DNA of 64,000 nt from NCBI GenBank assembly GCA_964355855.1, contig CAYHFD010000001.1, positions 9,921 to 73,920 on the forward strand, in the 5' to 3' direction. Below the pieces are notes generated by a model, which worked only from the letters and a program-made list of their open reading frames with translations, searched no databases and was not told where the DNA came from. Shown here one piece after another: positions 5,069 through 63,000 of this stretch. The translations under genes were made by a program, and so were the position numbers. The stretch comes from an uncultured Candidatus Saccharibacteria bacterium. GTDB taxonomy: Bacteria; Patescibacteriota; Minisyncoccia; Phycocordibacterales; XYD1-FULL-46-19. The stretch's first letter is position 1. The number at the start of each line of letters is the position of its first letter.

Positions 5069-6203
5069 TATTGGAACTGCCAGCATTAGGATTGTGGTCT
5101 GTGAATACAAAAACGGAAGCGCTGTGCCACAAGTCCTAGCCCTAGTTAAAAAAAATTCCCGCGGTCTTCGCCGTGGTTATATTTTGCAGTTTGACGAAGC
5201 GGTCGCGAGTATTAAAGAAGCCCTACAAGAAGCAGAGAGAGTGGCTGGTTGTAAAATTAAACAGGTTATCCTTGGTGTTGGCGGTGCCACCCTTGAATCA
5301 AAAATTATTGAGGGAGGGGTTATTGTCTCACGGGCCGATTCAGAAATAAACACCAATGATATTAATCGAGCCATTGAAGCCAGTGAAGCCGGCCTACCAG
5401 ATACCGCCAACAAGTCTATTATTCACCGTGTTCCAATTGCTTTTAAACTTGACGGTAAACGAGTCACCGGTAGACCAGAGGGACTAAAAGGTTCTAAACT
5501 AGAAGCCCAAATTTTGTTTGTAACTTATGCGTCAAACCATTTACGTGATTTTATTTCGGCGGTAGAAAGCGCTGGGGCCAGGGTGGATGATATCGCGGCC
5601 GCTCCTTTAGCTGCTAGTCTAGCTATCACCACTAAACTACAAAAAACCGCTGGCTGCGTGCTAGCTAATATTGGTTCGCAAACAACCTCTATTATAATTT
5701 TTGAAGAGGGTTTACCTCTTTCTTTAAAAGTATTTCCTATTGGTTCGACCGATATCACCAACGACATCGCCTTGGGCTTTCAAATTCCCCTCGAAGACGC
5801 TGAAAAAGTAAAAATAGGAGACATTGACGCCTCTATTCCCCAAAAAAAATTAGATGAAATTATTGAAGCCCGCTTGTCAGATATTTTTGAATTTATCGAA
5901 AATCATTTGAAAAGGTTGGGCCGCAACGGACTCCTCCCGGCTGGTATTATTATTACCGGCGGTGGGTCCGGTATTACCGAAATTGAACAGTTAGCTAAAG
6001 ATTATTTTAAACTCCCCGCCCGAGTCTCTATCCCAGCCGTGTCCACTGCCTCCAGAAACCAAATTCGCGAAACCGCTTGGTCGGTGGCTTATGGTCTCTG
6101 TTTGTTTGGGGCCGATTTTGAGGCCGAAGAATCATTGGGTCTGAAAATTGCTAAAACCACGAGACTAAACATCCTAAGGTGGATCAAAGAACTTTTGCCT
6201 TAA
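5040..6203 (+). CDS. ftsA: cell division protein FtsA (actin-like ATPase)
   Basis: IVTGLDIGTASIRIVV N-terminal phosphate-1 motif, IITGGGSG; directly upstream of ftsZ. Confidence 0.8.
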   Translation: MTRNIVTGLDIGTASIRIVVCEYKNGSAVPQVLALVKKNSRGLRRGYILQFDEAVASIKEALQEAERVAGCKIKQVILGVGGATLESKIIEGGVIVSRADSEINTNDINRAIEASEAGLPDTANKSIIHRVPIAFKLDGKRVTGRPEGLKGSKLEAQILFVTYASNHLRDFISAVESAGARVDDIAAAPLAASLAITTKLQKTAGCVLANIGSQTTSIIIFEEGLPLSLKVFPIGSTDITNDIALGFQIPLEDAEKVKIGDIDASIPQKKLDEIIEARLSDIFEFIENHLKRLGRNGLLPAGIIITGGGSGITEIEQLAKDYFKLPARVSIPAVSTASRNQIRETAWSVAYGLCLFGADFEAEESLGLKIAKTTRLNILRWIKELLP

Positions 6204-6308: not shown

Positions 6309-7478
6309 ATGGCCAAAATTCAACCGGAAATCGAAGCATTTGCCCGCATTAAAGTTATTGGGGTTGGTGGTTCTGGTACCAATGCAGTCAACCACATGGT
6401 CAACGCCAAGGTACGTGGTGTCGAATTTGTCGCTATGAACACTGACGCCCAGCATCTGCACGCTTCGGTTTCTCAAAAAAAGGTTCACATTGGTAAAAAC
6501 TTAACTCGTGGTCTGGGTACTGGTATGGATCCAGAAATCGGTCGTAAGGCCGCCGAAGAAAGTTTAGAGGATATTCAAAATGTCATCAAGGGGGCCGATA
6601 TGGTGTTTGTTTCTGGTGGTCTTGGAGGTGGTACTGGCACCGGTGCCATGCCCGTCATTGCTCGCACCGCTAAAGAACAGGGTGCATTAACAGTGGCCGT
6701 AGTCACCAAACCTTTTATTTTTGAGGGTAAACATCGCATGGCCCTAGCTGAACGCGGTATGTTGGAACTGCAAAAAGAGGTTGACGCAGTAATCGTTATC
6801 CCTAACGACCGCCTTTTAGGCATAATTTCCAAAGACACCACTGCCGAGCACGCTTTTGCGATGTGTGATGAAATTTTGCGCCAAGCCGTCGAGGGTATTT
6901 CGAATATTATAACCATTCCGGGTATTATTAATGTTGATTTCGCCGACATTCGAGCTATTATGCAAAATGCTGGCTCCGCCCTTATGGGTATTGGCAATGC
7001 TTCTGGAGAAAACCGCGCTGTCGAGGCCGCTCGCAATGCCATCAACTCGCCTCTCTTAGACCTATCGGTGGACGGTGCCAAAGGTGTACTGTTTACCATT
7101 GCCGGTGGTTCTGATATGACAATGTTTGAAATTCAAGAAGCCGCCAAAGTTATTACCGAATCGATTGATCCTGACGCCAAAGTTATTTTTGGTGCTATTC
7201 ATGACGACAAACTCAAAAAATCAGAGATTAGAGTTACGGTTATTGCTTGCGGTTTTCCCGAATCACAGAAAAAGAAAGGTGGCTTGTTTGGTTTTGATTC
7301 AAATAACAAAGAGACCGAAGTCGCCAAGGAACGTTCAAATGGTGTTCCACCCTCAACAACCCTGCGCCAGACACCTCCTCGTACCCAGGTAATTGAGCCC
7401 GAGAATCAATCTGATGGCGACGACGAAGACGATTGGTCATCTATCCCCGCTTTTTTAAGACGAGGAAATAAAAAATAG
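6309..7478 (+). CDS. ftsZ: cell division GTPase FtsZ
   Basis: IKVIGVGGSGTNAVNHM and GGGTGTG tubulin signature, acidic/basic C-terminal tail. Confidence 0.95.
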   Translation: MAKIQPEIEAFARIKVIGVGGSGTNAVNHMVNAKVRGVEFVAMNTDAQHLHASVSQKKVHIGKNLTRGLGTGMDPEIGRKAAEESLEDIQNVIKGADMVFVSGGLGGGTGTGAMPVIARTAKEQGALTVAVVTKPFIFEGKHRMALAERGMLELQKEVDAVIVIPNDRLLGIISKDTTAEHAFAMCDEILRQAVEGISNIITIPGIINVDFADIRAIMQNAGSALMGIGNASGENRAVEAARNAINSPLLDLSVDGAKGVLFTIAGGSDMTMFEIQEAAKVITESIDPDAKVIFGAIHDDKLKKSEIRVTVIACGFPESQKKKGGLFGFDSNNKETEVAKERSNGVPPSTTLRQTPPRTQVIEPENQSDGDDEDDWSSIPAFLRRGNKK

Positions 7479-7554
7479 GAATTAGTATTTAGTATATTGT
7501 ATTTAGGATAATTGGAATTTCATACTATATACTCTATACTACATACATATTTTT

Positions 7555-9614: not shown

Positions 9615-9638
9615 ATTATTTACCCATTTCCTTATTCT

Positions 9639-9662
9639 CCTATTCGCGCGAATTAGAGATAT
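9639..9662 (-). repeat. 24-bp motif copy 1 (CCTATTCGCGCGAATTAGAGATAT)
   Basis: Exact copy; supplies last codons and stop of msrB; 26 nt upstream of msrA ATG. Confidence 0.9.
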
Positions 9663-13633: not shown

Positions 13634-13681
13634 CCAAGGACCGTCCTTGGAAAAATTTTGATGTGGTGTAATTTTGCTTGG
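13634..13681. repeat. left inverted repeat (IR-A) of ~5 kb island
   Basis: CCAAGGACCGTCCTTGGAAAAATTTTGATGTGGTGTAATTTTGCTTGG matches reverse complement of 18631-18678 with about 5 mismatches. Confidence 0.8.
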
Positions 13682-13835
13682 CGGGCTACTCGAGTTAAAT
13701 ACCCCTAAGGCAAGGTGCCACAAGGGTATTCTAGCACTAATCAGCCCTCCTTTTCGAGACCTCAGAGTCGGGACTATAATATTGTAAATCCGATACTTAA
13801 AAAGATTCCTCTTGATACGCCACCCCTTATTGCGA

Positions 13836-17879: not shown

Positions 17880-18113
17880 CTTTGGCAATATTGGTAATGG
17901 TCGAAAGTGTAGGTGATACATAGGTCGGACCCATGGAAATGGTGACCCTCACAGCCTGGGAAACCCCCACCCGCCATCGCAAGCTCAGGCGTTGCGGGGC
18001 AGGCACGGTTTTCCGACGAGCTTCGCTCTGCCTTCCTCCACGGGAAAACAGGTGTTTTCCCGACCCCTTTCCCCTGTAGGGTCACAGTTTTTTCACTGTG
18101 TTTTAAAAAACTG
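17880..18113 (-). ncRNA. GC-rich structured element G (homolog of 27480-27702), immediately 3' of tRNA-Glu
   Basis: GC-rich in AT-rich genome; shared blocks CCTGGGAAACCC, GGTTTTCC, CTCCACGGGA.A.CAGGTGTT.TCC with element R; 20-bp perfect inverted repeat 18074-18124 includes the tRNA 3' end. Confidence 0.4.
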
Positions 18114-18542: not shown

Positions 18543-18633
18543 GGAAGGGTACCAAAGCGGTCATAATGGCACCGATTCGAAATCGGTTGAGGGCGTAAGT
18601 CCTACAAGGGTTCGAATCCCTTCCCTTCCGCCA
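18543..18633 (+). tRNA. tRNA-Ser (anticodon CGA), long variable arm, CCA encoded
   Basis: Acceptor GGAAGGG/CCCTTCC, anticodon stem ACCGA/TCGGT loop TTCGAAA, variable arm TGAGGGCGTAAGTCCTAC, T-arm AAGGG-TTCGAAT-CCCTT. Confidence 0.9.
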
Positions 18634-18678
18634 AACAAAATTACAACACACTAAAATTTTTCCAAGGACGGTCCTTGG
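18631..18678. repeat. right inverted repeat (IR-B) of ~5 kb island, begins at CCA of tRNA-Ser
   Basis: CCAAACAAAATTACAACACACTAAAATTTTTCCAAGGACGGTCCTTGG; reverse complement matches 13634-13681; similarity extends to CCGCCA of the tRNA 3' end. Confidence 0.8.
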
Positions 18679-24995: not shown

Positions 24996-25026
24996 GAAAA
25001 AGGCCTCCATCACTGGAGGCTTTTTG
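24996..25026. terminator. intrinsic terminator immediately 3' of tRNA-Phe (minus strand)
   Basis: GGCCTCCA-TCAC-TGGAGGCC hairpin flanked by A5/T5 runs on both strands. Confidence 0.65.
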
Positions 25027-25391
25027 TGCTTGGGGGCGGGTTCGAACCGCCGACCCTTCGCTCTTCCAGAGCGTTTGGACTATATCATCATCCGTTCTGC
25101 TAATAAGCAGAGTTAGGAGGCAGGCGCTTCCCCTCAACTACGCTCGGGGTAAACCCTAAGCTAATCAAGAGTACTCCCTTTCGGGATAGTCTCTACACCT
25201 TCCGAGCACCACTTTTGAATTCTAGAATATTCTAAAAACCAAAAGTGGTGCTCGGCTTGGCTCGGGATTGTCCAAAAAATTAATCTTGGGTGTCCCCCGA
25301 ATTCACCTACTTTTTCGATCCACTTTACAATAGAAAGGCCCGAAGTTTTTTAGGGTCCAGGCGAATGCTCTACCAACTGAGCTACCCAAGC
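25027..25391 (-). tRNA. tRNA-Phe (inferred anticodon GAA) interrupted by a ~282-nt group-I-like intron in the anticodon loop
   Basis: 5' exon 25359-25391: GCTTGGGTAGCTCAGTTGGTAGAGCATTCGCCT; 3' exon 25027-25076: GAAGAGCGAAGGGTCGGCGGTTCGAACCCGCCCCCAAGCA; halves form perfect acceptor (GCTTGGG/CCCAAGC), anticodon (TTCGC/GCGAA) and T stems. Confidence 0.75.
25077..25358 (-). ncRNA. group I intron (self-splicing ribozyme candidate) within tRNA-Phe
   Basis: 5' exon ends in U, intron ends in G; contains GAGACTATCCCGAAAGGGAGTACTC (P7/GAAA-tetraloop-like) and GATGATATAGTCC (P7') reminiscent of the Tetrahymena/cyanobacterial cores. Confidence 0.65.
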
Positions 25392-25832: not shown

Positions 25833-26393
25833 ATGGGTACATCGACAAGAGGGCGGAGAGACGTGCTCATCATCCACCCTTATGGGTTCATCACGGAACT
25901 AGACAACAGTGGTTCTGCCGGCTCAAAAGCACAAATTGAAAGGGCTCGCGAACTCATCCGCCACCACAAGGTTGCTGAAAATTGTGTTATGGTCTTTCCT
26001 CAGGGATATTACCCTCACCGACCGGAGAGTCTAGGTGAGAACATGGTCCGTTACATTCGGAGCTTATCGGAATTTAAGAATGTCTATGTGTTGCAGAGTC
26101 CATGTTCGCGAGGCACGGCCACTGACACCATAGCCGCTTATGACATGGTGGAGAAAGACGGGATAGACAGGTCACTTATGTTCCACTTCGTGACCGATCC
26201 CGTCCATATGCGGCGCGTACGGTTAATCTGGTTCCTGACCCACCCCCGATACAGAGGCTGGCAGGCCACATTTCACCCGGCTTACGGGCACCAAATGACC
26301 GCCAGAGAGCGTAACCTCCGCGAGCCATTGGCTCGCGTCAAGGACGCAGTAAGACTTCTACCTGTGTTCGTTAAGCGACTCATTGGCCGTTGA
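25833..26393 (+). CDS. DUF218 (YdcF/ElyC/SanA-like) domain protein, high-GC gene
   Basis: VTDPVHMRRVRLIW resembles conserved DUF218 HMxRA motif; AAGGAG SD 8 nt upstream; GC clearly above local background. Confidence 0.5.
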   Translation: MGTSTRGRRDVLIIHPYGFITELDNSGSAGSKAQIERARELIRHHKVAENCVMVFPQGYYPHRPESLGENMVRYIRSLSEFKNVYVLQSPCSRGTATDTIAAYDMVEKDGIDRSLMFHFVTDPVHMRRVRLIWFLTHPRYRGWQATFHPAYGHQMTARERNLREPLARVKDAVRLLPVFVKRLIGR

Positions 26394-35813: not shown

Positions 35814-35820
35814 CGATATA

Positions 35821-36270
35821 ATTGCCTTTTGTTTATAAGCCGAATTCTGTACCGAGCACCACTTCTGACACCCACATTCTTATTAGAAAACACTAAGTAA
35901 GTGTAAATTGATTTGCTAGTGAAAGTTAGACAGTCAGTAGCAGAAGTGGTGCTCGGCGATAGCCATTTATCTGGGATGACTGTCGCCAGCCACCTCAAGC
36001 GGCACAAACCAGTGCAAAGCACTGGAGTACGACCTTGCATTCGGGTAGGTATTTTGCCGTTTCAATCTTCAGGTTTCCCTGAAGCTTCACCCCAAAGGGT
36101 GCCTTTGCCTCTCGGCTAGGGCGTCACTGCTCTCAACCCTCGGATTGCTCCGGACAGGCGTTACCTGCTACCTTGTTCCACCATCTAAAGATAGTGGGAA
36201 TGTTCGGACTTTCCTCTATCAGCCCGCCCAATCGGGCAAACTGACAGTAGCTATCCAACAAAAGGCAACC
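35821..36270 (-). ncRNA. rnpB: RNase P RNA (bacterial type A-like)
   Basis: Minus-strand: GAGGAAAGUCCGAAC (P4 5' strand), GGUAACGCCUG, GGGUGAAGC, ACAGAAUUCGGCUUAUA (P4 3' strand); P1 GGUUGCCUUUUGUU pairs with AACAAAAGGCAAUU. Confidence 0.8.
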
Positions 36271-57249: not shown

Positions 57250-57470
57250 TAAAGTTAATTAAACCACTTCTCGCCCCGTAGGAAGCTTGGCTTTCCTACT
57301 GGGGTGGTCCACACTTGTCCCGTAGCCAGCGTACTCGCTGTGGTACCGGGATGGGCAATAATAGCGATGTTACGAATTTCGGTCATTGTAGAAATAATTA
57401 TTGTATTAGCGACCCGCCCGCAACGCCTAAGCTTGCGATGACGGGCGGGTGTTACGAATTTCTGTCATAA
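57250..57470 (-). promoter_or_regulatory. bipA leader with two degenerate upstream copies of the first ~7-11 codons, each preceded by a GC-rich hairpin
   Basis: Minus-strand ATGACTGAGATACGTAATATCGCCATTATTGCCC (57207-57240) recurs as ATGACCGAAATTCGTAACATCGCTATTATTGCCC (57352-57386) and ATGACAGAAATTCGTAAC (57451-57468); hairpins at 57274-57304 and 57414-57450. Confidence 0.5.
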
Positions 57471-61300: not shown

Positions 61301-61349
61301 CAACCACCACCTTTTCTTTTTCCCTTTTTATTTCTATTTTTTCTATTCC

Positions 61350-61373
61350 CCTATTCGCGCGAATTAGAGATAT
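61350..61373 (-). repeat. 24-bp motif copy 2
   Basis: Exact copy; supplies last codons and stop of ArsR-like gene. Confidence 0.9.
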
Positions 61374-61635
61374 GTTTAGAAACGTATTGAACAATAGGAT
61401 GACGATCCGGCGACAGCGAATACCACATTTCCAAACCCCGCTGCTTTTTTTCCACAATATCAGCCCCGTAAAGCACTGCCAAATGTTTAGAGGTGGCTTT
61501 GAAAGACAAGTTGATTTTTTCGGCCAACTCACTTACTGTCGCCTCTTTTTCTCGCCCTAAATATTTGATCAGCGCCAGCCGCCGCCCATTGGCCAGTGCT
61601 TTCAACACCCGCTCTAACTCCTTAATATTTTTCAT
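61351..61635 (-). CDS. ArsR/SmtB-family transcriptional regulator (C-terminus supplied by 24-bp repeat)
   Basis: RRLALIKYL...ATVSELAEKINLSFKATSKHLAVLYGADIV winged HTH; ends HISNSRE-stop inside repeat. Confidence 0.8.
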   Translation of the reverse strand: MKNIKELERVLKALANGRRLALIKYLGREKEATVSELAEKINLSFKATSKHLAVLYGADIVEKKQRGLEMWYSLSPDRHPIVQYVSKHISNSRE

Positions 61636-61657: not shown

Positions 61658-61681
61658 CCTATTCGCGCGAATTAGAGATAT
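61658..61681 (-). repeat. 24-bp motif copy 3
   Basis: Exact copy; between racemase stop and ArsR-like ATG (about 25 nt upstream of ATG). Confidence 0.9.
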
Positions 61682-61692
61682 ATTCTACGCTT

Positions 61693-62397
61693 TTAGGTTT
61701 TATTTTCCAGAGCTAAAGCCAAGGCCTTGTCCACTATCACTTGATTAGAGTTTATTAATGGTACCGCTAAAGCCATGGCCCCGAGCGCCAGTGGCAACTC
61801 TGTACAACCAAGAATAATCACCTCGGCCCCGGCCTGCACCAAGCTAGCCACAATTTCTTGAATCAGCTGAGTATCGGCCCCATCATTTTTTCCAGCCATA
61901 ACTTTCAAAATAATCCCATCTAACTTAGCCTGTTCGGCCACGGTCACAACTAGAGGCTCGATACCGGCTTTCACCAGCTTGTCCGTATAAAGATTATACT
62001 TGGCACTACTGGCTGAGGTTAGGAGTCCCGCCCGAGTGTAGCCCCCAGTCTTCGCCATCTGCACTGTCTCATCGACAATACTCAAAATCGGAATATTGAG
62101 TCCGGCCTGCATTTCGTCTTGATAGATATGTACCGTATTGCAAGCGATCACAACAAAATCACACTTGGCCGATTCTAGTCTTTTGACCCCAGATACCAGT
62201 TGCCTCTTGACGGCTTCAGCCTCCACAATCCCCCGCTCGTCAAAACCCTCGAGCGGTAGATTGTAAATAATTATCGGCGGAAACTCATTGTCTTGCACCG
62301 CCCCATATTTATTATGAGCCAGATCGATAATTAGATTGTAGAAATAAGCACTTGCCTCCGGGCCCATACCACCCAAAATACCAATTGTTTTCTTCAT
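61693..62397 (-). CDS. aspartate/glutamate racemase family protein
   Basis: IGILGGMGPEAS, VIACNTVH, IILGCTELP two-Cys racemase motifs. Confidence 0.85.
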   Translation of the reverse strand: MKKTIGILGGMGPEASAYFYNLIIDLAHNKYGAVQDNEFPPIIIYNLPLEGFDERGIVEAEAVKRQLVSGVKRLESAKCDFVVIACNTVHIYQDEMQAGLNIPILSIVDETVQMAKTGGYTRAGLLTSASSAKYNLYTDKLVKAGIEPLVVTVAEQAKLDGIILKVMAGKNDGADTQLIQEIVASLVQAGAEVIILGCTELPLALGAMALAVPLINSNQVIVDKALALALENKT

Positions 62398-62905: not shown

Positions 62906-62976
62906 GTTTTTATTTTACCCCAGCTTAGCCCTTATCTAAAACCCCACAAAAATATTTTCACTATTAGCTTTATTCT

Positions 62977-63000
62977 CCTATTCGCGCGAATTAGAGATAT
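62977..63000 (-). repeat. 24-bp motif copy 4
   Basis: Exact copy with same 7-nt extension as copy 1; ~70 nt upstream of TfoX_N gene ATG. Confidence 0.9.

Follow-up and report, generated by a model that had tools for sequence, protein, structure and literature searches.

A tRNA-Phe(GAA) gene of a Vogelbacteria-like Patescibacterium interrupted between U33 and G34 by a predicted self-splicing group I intron

We analyzed a 64-kb stretch of contig CAYHFD010000001.1 (assembly GCA_964355855.1), hereafter called the window, in which positions 25027-25391 hold a tRNA-Phe gene split by a group I intron. A preliminary description of this DNA had placed the split gene at these positions, which was borne out, but the gene has to be read on the minus strand. 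The gene was not reported when ARAGORN was run on the window in default mode. The ARAGORN intron search called tRNA-Phe(gaa) with a 292-nt intron at 33-34 ('cgcct-Intron-gaaga'), the sole split tRNA of the 64-kb window. From 5' to 3' on the minus strand, the locus comprises the following features.

25359-25391, minus strand: 5' exon of tRNA-Phe, tRNA positions 1-33, with C32 and U33 as its last bases (ARAGORN -i; same as the 5' half of the intron-less tRNA-Phe of locus L144)
25067-25358, minus strand: group I intron of 292 nt, starting with GGACCC and ending with CUCUG, terminal G at 25067, no protein encoded (Rfam RF00028; covariation)
25338-25345, minus strand: internal guide CUUCGGGC within the intron, of which GGGC pairs with exon GCCU as P1 (U33·G wobble) and CUUC pairs with 3' exon GAAG as P10 (read from the sequence; also in the Doudnabacteria Phe intron)
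25027-25066, minus strand: 3' exon of tRNA-Phe, positions 34-73, starting with the GAA anticodon followed by G37 and A38; discriminator A at 25027, no encoded CCA (CUGAAGA loop also in intron-less orthologues)
25003-25020, minus strand: terminator-like hairpin GCCUCCA-GUGA-UGGAGGC with a U run, 6 nt past the tRNA 3' end (read from the sequence)

Read 5' to 3' on the minus strand, the 5' exon (25391-25359) is GCUUGGGUAGCUCAGUUGGUAGAGCAUUCGCCU and the 3' exon (25066-25027) is GAAGAGCGAAGGGUCGGCGGUUCGAACCCGCCCCCAAGCA. The joined exons form a 73-nt cloverleaf with the ARAGORN verdict tRNA-Phe(gaa), consisting of the acceptor stem GCTTGGG/CCCAAGC, the D arm GCTCAGTTGGTAGAGC, the anticodon stem TTCGC/GCGAA, the T arm GGCGG-TTCGAAC-CCGCC, and the discriminator A. 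Earlier claims about this gene were upheld on three counts: the two halves do assemble into a perfect cloverleaf, with all named stems present at 25027-25391 and ARAGORN -i in agreement; the loop CU|GAAGA with anticodon GAA (Phe) is given both by the ARAGORN call and by the sequence of an intron-less orthologue; and the intrinsic terminator after the tRNA has its counterpart at 25020-25003 (minus strand), where a T run follows a terminator-like hairpin. The identity elements of bacterial tRNA-Phe are A73, U20, and the anticodon bases G34, A35, and A36; both A73 and U20 were found in the joined exons, and the anticodon is GAA. Position 37 is a G, not the usual bacterial A, and the same base was found in all six intron-less relatives described below. 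Because these relatives carry the same CUGAAGA loop, G37 is, judging from the sequences compared, a lineage trait and no splice-site artefact.

The intervening DNA scored 54.3 bits with the Rfam group I intron model RF00028 (Intron_gpI), for which the gathering score is 50 (E = 5e-11 for the whole window), and the minus-strand alignment, from 25361 to 25058, takes in all of the model (1-253). The match is not due to chance, and its score is marginal because P6 and P7.1/P7.2 count as insertions. The group-I-like nature proposed in the preliminary description thus held up when the Rfam check was run, and the 5' exon does end in U (25359) and the intron in G (25067), as had been noted; the length of ~282 nt given there needs correction to 292 nt (25358-25067).

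The splice sites were assigned from the pairings of the intron with its exons. P1 consists of 7 bp, formed by exon GCCU and intron GGA (25362-25356) with UUCGGGC (25344-25338), so that U33 (25359) is wobble-paired to G (25341) at the 5' splice site. P10 consists of 4 bp, in which CUUC, lying directly 5' of the P1 guide, is complementary to GAAG, the first four bases of the 3' exon. The octamer CUUCGGGC therefore forms one continuous guide that lines up the ligated junction GCCU|GAAG, and the terminal G of the intron (omega G) is at 25067. Alternative boundaries were examined: the anticodon loop contains no alternative U, and any other choice of terminal G leaves a loop that is 6 nt or >7 nt long. 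Only the proposed splice sites yield the U·G pair in P1, the terminal G, P10, and a 7-nt anticodon loop together, in accordance with the splice position originally put forward. The P1 drawn by Rfam itself (ACCC with GGG; model splice-site U at 25352) was rejected, as it produces a U-C mismatch, no U·G pair, and no tRNA.

A homing endonuclease open reading frame (ORF) was sought in the intron, in which the internal same-strand ORFs reach at most 28 codons; longer ORFs over the intron lie on the opposite strand or run into the flanks and were dismissed as spurious. Comparison of the intron with phage genomes gave no match.

We assessed the intron fold by drawing the structure of the window intron by hand and transferring it to an alignment of 43 sequences, namely the window and 42 homologous loci that passed a strict parser requiring paired acceptor and anticodon stems; the parser left out 17 of the 59 loci found in the scan described below. 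Standard pairs occurred in 87.3% of the cells, compared with 75.2% in shuffled alignments and 31-50% with the partners slid, and changes on both sides were observed in 31 pairs; the observed values were reached by 0 of 500 shuffles, the aligned homologues being mutually related. The helices, with their support in the alignment, are as follows.

25319-25334, minus strand: P2 hairpin UCUAUU-GUAA-AGUGGA with a GNRA loop; compensatory changes in 6 of 6 pairs, 95% of cells paired
25304-25310, minus strand: P3 5' strand GUAGGUG, pairing with 25120-25126; 99% of cells paired, compensatory changes in 3 of 7 pairs
25295-25301, minus strand: P4 5' strand UUCGGGG; 99% of cells paired, compensatory changes in 3 of 7 pairs
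25272-25290, minus strand: P5 hairpin, weak and poorly conserved; 69% of cells paired, fold z-score -1.3
25261-25267, minus strand: P4 3' strand UCCCGAG (alignment of 43)
25202-25255, minus strand: P6, a 54-nt near-perfect hairpin (the 'T1' module), CCGAGCACCACUUUUGG...CAAAAGUGGUGCUCGG; -37.5 kcal/mol, z = -9.8
25187-25193, minus strand: P7 5' strand GAGACUA (guanosine-binding helix by analogy), with very little variation and pairing to 25077-25082 in 98% of cells
25175-25186, minus strand: P7.1 hairpin UCCC-GAAA-GGGA; predicted fold, covarying in the 17 homologues that have P7.1
25131-25171, minus strand: P7.2, a long hairpin between P7.1 and the P3 3' strand; predicted fold, insertion relative to RF00028
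25120-25126, minus strand: P3 3' strand CGCCUGC (alignment of 43)
25091-25118, minus strand: P8 hairpin; predicted fold, base 85% paired with 2 compensatory pairs
25077-25082, minus strand: P7 3' strand UAGUCC, preceded by J8/7 GAUGAUA (Rfam alignment; alignment of 43)

The base of P6 was paired in 99% of cells with covariation in 5 of 5 pairs, and P3 occurs in the family as GUAGGUG/CGCCUGC, CGAGGUG/CGCCUCG, and UCGGGUG/CGCCCGA, while P7.2 could not be aligned across the intron family. The exon cloverleaf showed compensatory changes in 12 of 21 pairs, including three anticodon-stem pairs that span the intron. The motifs quoted in the preliminary description as resembling group I elements are indeed present and can be assigned: GAGACUA to the P7 5' strand, UCCC-GAAA-GGGA to the P7.1 GNRA hairpin, and GAUAUAGUC to J8/7 together with the P7 3' strand. 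Base pairing between the final intron nucleotides and the 3' strand of the anticodon stem is possible in about half of the sequences and varies together with the sequence of the stem (mean longest helix 4.77 bp, compared with 3.79 bp for permuted partners and a maximum of 4.21 bp in 200 permutations), suggesting an optional P9-like helix, which in the window would be a 6-bp hairpin around the terminal G. Further Rfam matches in this region were discarded, those to Phe_leader and Thr_leader (plus strand) being merely the terminator hairpin and those to microRNAs merely the P6 hairpin, all far under their gathering scores.

The distribution of similar introns was assessed by scanning one genome per GTDB species with the deliberately narrow pattern GGTAGAGCNNNNGCCTGN{2,20}CTTCGGGC. 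The scan returned 59 loci, almost all labelled as Patescibacteria (Vogel-, Taylor-, Magasanik-, Berkel-, Niyogi-, Staskawicz-, Ryan-, Lipton-, Doudna-, Colwell-, and Azambacteria, together with many generic labels). Of these, 53 were called by ARAGORN as tRNA-Phe(gaa) interrupted by an intron of ~180-336 nt, and all 18 loci tested passed the RF00028 gathering score (52.6-109.5 bits). Four of the six loci that gave no tRNA call are at contig edges; two loci labelled Chitinispirillales and Chloroflexia, also devoid of a tRNA call, look like chance matches. One further locus, L017, is labelled Gammaproteobacteria yet bears a Patescibacteria-type tRNA-Phe intron. At its positions 6333-7501 the Rfam model of bacterial small-subunit rRNA was matched end to end (1-1533) in merely 1169 nt; the 16S rRNA of L017 appears to be much reduced, and the locus is probably mislabelled taxonomically.

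Nakagawa et al. 2026 (mSystems, PMC13011429) list the Phe(GAA) 33/34 intron for a Doudnabacteria genome, and the literature has it in one of 95 complete genomes. In Patescibacteria, the tRNA-Phe 33/34 intron is far more widespread than this one case suggests: what is new here is its presence in no fewer than 53 species, although the scan was narrow, and its patchiness among close relatives. The earlier remark that an insertion between positions 33 and 34 of tRNA-Phe is unusual was accordingly overstated, in view of the at least 53 species-level genomes, a Phe.2Ug sequence in a published seed alignment, the listing of a Doudnabacteria intron, and the classical 33/34 site in tRNA-fMet. The main value of the observation lies in annotation, as default tRNA finders miss the gene and the genome would seem to be without tRNA-Phe.

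The window belongs among relatives of Vogelbacteria. Its LepA protein is 80% identical to that of Candidatus Vogelbacteria RIFOXYD1_FULL_44_32, and the named best matches are all Vogelbacteria or Paceibacterota. The gene order TsaD, class I tRNA synthetase, PrsW, HSP20, tRNA-Phe, tRNA-Arg, tRNA-Gly, LepA, MurJ, TPR protein, and RNase P RNA is conserved with Vogelbacteria genomes. The 186-aa protein encoded beside the tRNA gene (25833-26393) has an identical copy from Hainich groundwater well H52 (0.1 um filter fraction), where the neighbouring genes have the same sizes and order. A cyanobacterial origin, brought up by core strings like those of the Anabaena tRNA-Leu intron, was rejected on the basis of the groundwater source, the LepA affinity to Vogelbacteria, and an architecture other than that of subgroup IC3.

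Comparison of syntenic loci revealed both intron-bearing and intron-less alleles. The intron is present in the window, in L143/L015 (Candidatus Vogelbacteria RIFOXYD1_FULL_44_32; LepA 80% identity), in L006 (80%), and in L026 (66%), and absent from L144 (LepA 77%), L145 (75%), L147 and L148 (69%), L149, and L150. In L144 (Candidatus Vogelbacteria RIFOXYD1_FULL_46_19), an uninterrupted tRNA-Phe gene occupies the syntenic position beside the HSP20 gene and equals the predicted spliced product, including ...GCCUGAAGAGCG..., save for one T-loop base. The other five loci also have an intron-less tRNA-Phe with the same CUGAAGA loop. The intron-less tRNA-Phe(GAA) genes, at or near the syntenic position, are:

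L144 14686-14759
L145 13396-13469
L147 17077-17150
L148 13681-13754
L149 14904-14977
L150 13828-13901

Since the extended P1 loop CCCUAAAA is common to the four intron-bearing genomes, this pattern suggests one ancestral intron followed by precise losses, with lateral gain as the alternative. Alleles with and without the intron at one syntenic position provide a clean natural system for the study of precise intron loss or gain in reduced genomes.

Taken together, these data describe, with a probability that we put at about 0.92, a functional tRNA-Phe(GAA) gene cut between U33 and G34 by an endonuclease-free, predicted self-splicing group I intron of the Patescibacteria lineage bearing P7.1 and P7.2, an old and patchily kept resident of this clade and not a recent invader. 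The intron is most likely genuine and self-splicing, catalysis being predicted from its sequence elements, its covariation-backed fold, and its exon junction. In the splicing pathway that we propose, in analogy to characterized group I introns, exon GCCU of the precursor would pair with guide GGGC to form P1 with its U33·G wobble, and the core P3-P8, with the P3/P7 pseudoknot, would fold around P1. An external guanosine would then attack after U33. The guide would swap intron GGA for GAAG of the 3' exon, which CUUC would hold in P10, and the freed 3'-OH of U33 would attack after the terminal G (25067). Ligation of the exons would give tRNA-Phe with the anticodon loop CUGAAGA.

Several observations weigh against this interpretation. 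Support for this particular intron comes from sequence and covariation, the RF00028 score is barely over the threshold, and P5 is weak (69% paired, z = -1.3). The invariance of P1 and P10 in the alignment arises partly by construction, as the search pattern fixed both, and the 100% pairing of the cloverleaf likewise, as the parser demanded paired stems. A 6-bp hairpin, in which the intron tail pairs with the 3' exon around the terminal G, is a possible competitor of splicing. In addition, 64 kb of the genome were examined, and a second tRNA-Phe gene is possible elsewhere.

Three alternatives were considered. The one that survives best, although we regard it as unlikely, is a genuine intron that is removed with the help of a protein cofactor or chaperone, such as a factor binding the P6 hairpin common to the intron and RNase P RNA. 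Protein help is required by many natural group I introns, and further points in favour of this alternative are the weakness of P5 and the identical-type 16-bp stem in the intron and in RNase P RNA, which could be a common binding site. However, the L006 intron is without the P6 extension and otherwise near-identical, which argues that the core can do without the hairpin; no protein emerged as a candidate; and related Patescibacteria tRNA introns self-splice in vitro (PMC13011429).

It is considerably less probable that the intron is a decayed, non-splicing relic and the interrupted copy a tRNA pseudogene, with a working tRNA-Phe encoded elsewhere in the genome. Such decay could account for the marginal Rfam score and for the long 54-nt P6 hairpin, the large P7.2, and the weak P5, and the examined 64 kb would leave room for another gene. 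Decay is at odds with exons that match the intron-less orthologue but for one T-loop base and with core helices that are all intact and covary over 43 species. Moreover, the exons of L015 (Vogelbacteria RIFOXYD1_FULL_44_32) and L006 are identical while their introns diverge in sequence and length, and a complete Doudnabacteria genome has exactly one tRNA-Phe gene according to each of three tools (PMC13011429, supplement). Shifted splice sites that would give the mature tRNA a different anticodon can be practically dismissed, even though two-base boundary errors are known for 35/36 introns (ARAGORN/tFind called Patescibacteria tRNA-Asn as tRNA-Thr; PMC13011429) and the Rfam alignment itself puts P1 elsewhere, since that placement leads to the U-C mismatch and to no tRNA, C32 and U33 are followed by GGACCC without another loop U, other terminal Gs alter the loop length, CUUCGGGC is complementary to GCCU|GAAG only, and the intron-less orthologues show the same junction.

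The P6 hairpin of the intron has a counterpart in the RNase P RNA gene of the window. The 13-mer CCGAGCACCACTT occurs in exactly four copies in the window, arranged as two inverted pairs; the first pair is the P6 hairpin (25202-25255, -37.5 kcal/mol), and the second forms the base of the following feature.

35852-35956, minus strand: hairpin of 105 nt occupying P19 in the gene for RNase P RNA (gene 35820-36266)

The stems of the intron P6 and of the window P19 are 16 bp each, with 13 nt identical per arm and one compensatory pair difference. This module, T1, has the arms CCGAGCACCACUU and was found at intron P6 and at three sites of RNase P RNA, namely P3, P19, and a position immediately following the 5' strand of P4. 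The L143/L015 intron has the same P6 hairpin (L143 15808-15861), and P6 of the otherwise near-identical L006 intron is just CCGAG-UCUAAUUUA-CUCGG. In the RNase P RNA of L146, a 54-nt hairpin (5620-5673) directly follows GAGGAAAGUCCGGACACAG and is 48/54 identical (89%) to that of the intron, that of L144 contains T1 twice, at P3 and P19 (4869-4957 and 5338-5397), and that of L145 has a short P3, CCGAGCAC-UAUUUAUA-GUGCUCGG (5655-5678). Across non-homologous sites, the 54-nt T1 copies are 87-89% identical. A second module, T2 (93-94 nt, CCCUGUGGAAUAAAGAG...), is located after P4 in L142 (5110-5202) and at P19 in L143 (5377-5470). The T2 copies of these two species are 92.6% identical, compared with 72-76% for the remaining RNase P RNA, and this implies that T2 was relocated or spread laterally. 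Over 12 RNase P RNAs of the clade, the three hairpin positions vary from no hairpin up to >130 nt.

Because copies at non-homologous sites are more alike than their host RNAs, the comparison implies that the T1 and T2 modules have been moved or exchanged between sites. A more general interpretation, to which we give somewhat less than even odds, is that the P6 hairpin is a copy in a family of discrete modules relocating between peripheral helices of catalytic RNA genes in Vogelbacteria-like Patescibacteria. In ~250 kb of clade sequence (the window and LepA-centred loci), neither T1 nor T2 was seen outside RNase P RNA and the intron; the T1 hairpin arms were not found in viral contigs, and a literature search for such hairpin modules found nothing. 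If this interpretation were true, the modules would represent a mobile or recombining RNA-helix element, either specialized for ribozyme helices or merely tolerated in them, and might be excised like rRNA intervening sequences. Small structured elements would then be spreading among ribozyme genes of the candidate phyla radiation, which would explain part of the size variation of RNase P RNA. The nearest analogues come from other RNAs. Repeats are inserted into P6b of the tRNA-Leu intron in Nostoc (PMC4476775). Cyanobacterial RNase P RNA also contains repeats, and 23S rRNA contains intervening sequences.

The RNase P RNA gene of the window (35820-36266, minus strand) itself scored 103.4 bits against a threshold of 100, with the P13/P14 region largely deleted and large hairpin insertions. 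The RNase P RNAs of relatives fell under the threshold (75.6 bits in L150 and 57.7 bits in L152), and that of L144 was unreported at the gathering score; annotation pipelines would miss these genes. A metagenome scan with the 207-aa protein encoded beside RNase P showed that it is widespread but not syntenic with RNase P there.

Other repeats were also observed in the window. A ~31-nt motif, TTATTCTCCTATTCGCGCGAATTAGAGATAT, with the palindromic core TTCGCGCGAA, is present in four copies (9632-9662, 61344-61377, 61658-61696, and 62970-63000) and may represent a common operator or promoter element. A GC-rich repeat resembling a hairpin (CCCGCC..CATCGCAAGCTYAGGCGTTGCGGG) is found at 17956-18041 and 57413-57462 in opposite orientations, and again downstream of tRNA-Phe in the Vogelbacteria locus L015 (6292-6383). 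A 51-nt inverted duplicate with 92% identity occupies 13634-13684 and 18628-18678, one copy adjoining the tRNA-Ser(cga) gene (18543-18633).

With respect to known group I introns, helices P7.1 and P7.2 between P7 and the P3 3' strand are reportedly the hallmark of subgroup IA, and IC3 introns are said to be without such helices. In the window intron, the ~60 nt between GAGACUA and CGCCUGC fold as UCCC-GAAA-GGGA plus a long second hairpin, an insertion in the Rfam model, so that the P3 3' strand does not come straight after P7 as in IC3. The likeness of the core sequence to IC3 is real, but the architecture differs. Judged by architecture and by this distinction, the predicted fold points to subgroup IA rather than to cyanobacterial IC3. 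The intron also differs from mobile group I introns that encode a homing endonuclease in having no endonuclease ORF (LAGLIDADG, GIY-YIG, HNH, or PD-(D/E)XK).

The IC3 tRNA introns, which include those of cyanobacterial/plastid tRNA-Leu(UAA) at 34/35, cyanobacterial tRNA-fMet at 33/34, and Azoarcus tRNA-Ile at 36/37, share with the window intron a site in the anticodon loop, the lack of an endonuclease gene, and a similar P4/P6/P7 core (AAUCCNGAGCCAAGCC, GGUGYAGAGACU; Anabaena sequence compared), and the tRNA-fMet intron occupies the same, classical 33/34 position. In contrast, IC3 introns, with the Azoarcus sequence among them, reportedly have no helices between P7 and P3', where the window intron has ~60 nt, and the host phylum and the tRNA differ as well. 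In Nostoc, P6b of the tRNA-Leu intron is also a hotspot for repeat insertions (PMC4476775).

Patescibacteria introns are closer. Nakagawa et al. 2026 (PMC13011429) place none of the Patescibacteria tRNA introns in IC and nearly all in IA. The tRNA-Asn(GUU) 35/36 introns, for example that of Paceibacteria GCA_026016225.1, have a 3' half much like that of the window intron (agagactatcccggaagggagtac ... ggggaagcgcc ... gagatagtcc) and the same P7.1/P7.2; they are assigned to subgroup IA, and their class self-splices in vitro (PMC13011429). They differ in the tRNA, the site, and the guide, and some members, unlike the window intron, have HNH endonuclease genes. Two architectures exist in the tRNA-Phe intron family, one with P7.1 and P7.2, as in the window, and one with a single hairpin with the conserved 17-nt loop UGAGUCCCAACAAUAAU; both are also seen among the tRNA-Asn 35/36 introns listed in PMC13011429.

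The closest known system is the tRNA-Phe intron represented by 'Mba55.Phe.2Ug' in the covariance-model seed alignment of Williams 2020 (bioRxiv 10.1101/2020.01.27.920355), a study that extended the classical bacterial tRNA intron settings from four to 21, and by the 211-nt Phe(GAA) 33/34 intron of Doudnabacteria GCA_016699995.1 (PMC13011429). The tRNA, the insertion site, the CU|GAAGA loop, and the guide (cttcgggcc) are all the same as in the window intron, and the core strings GACAATCCCGAGCCAAGCC, GGAAGGTGTAGAGACTA, and GATGATATAGTCCAAA are common to both. P3 differs by compensatory changes only, being GUAGGUG/CGCCUGC in the window and UCGGGUG/CGCCCGA in Doudnabacteria. The window intron is longer (292 vs 211 nt), with an 11-nt P1 loop and the 54-nt P6 hairpin, and has P7.1 (GAAA loop) and P7.2 where the Doudnabacteria intron has the single hairpin with the conserved 17-nt loop. 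The tRNA-Phe 33/34 intron class has thus already been described, and the window intron is a further member of it.

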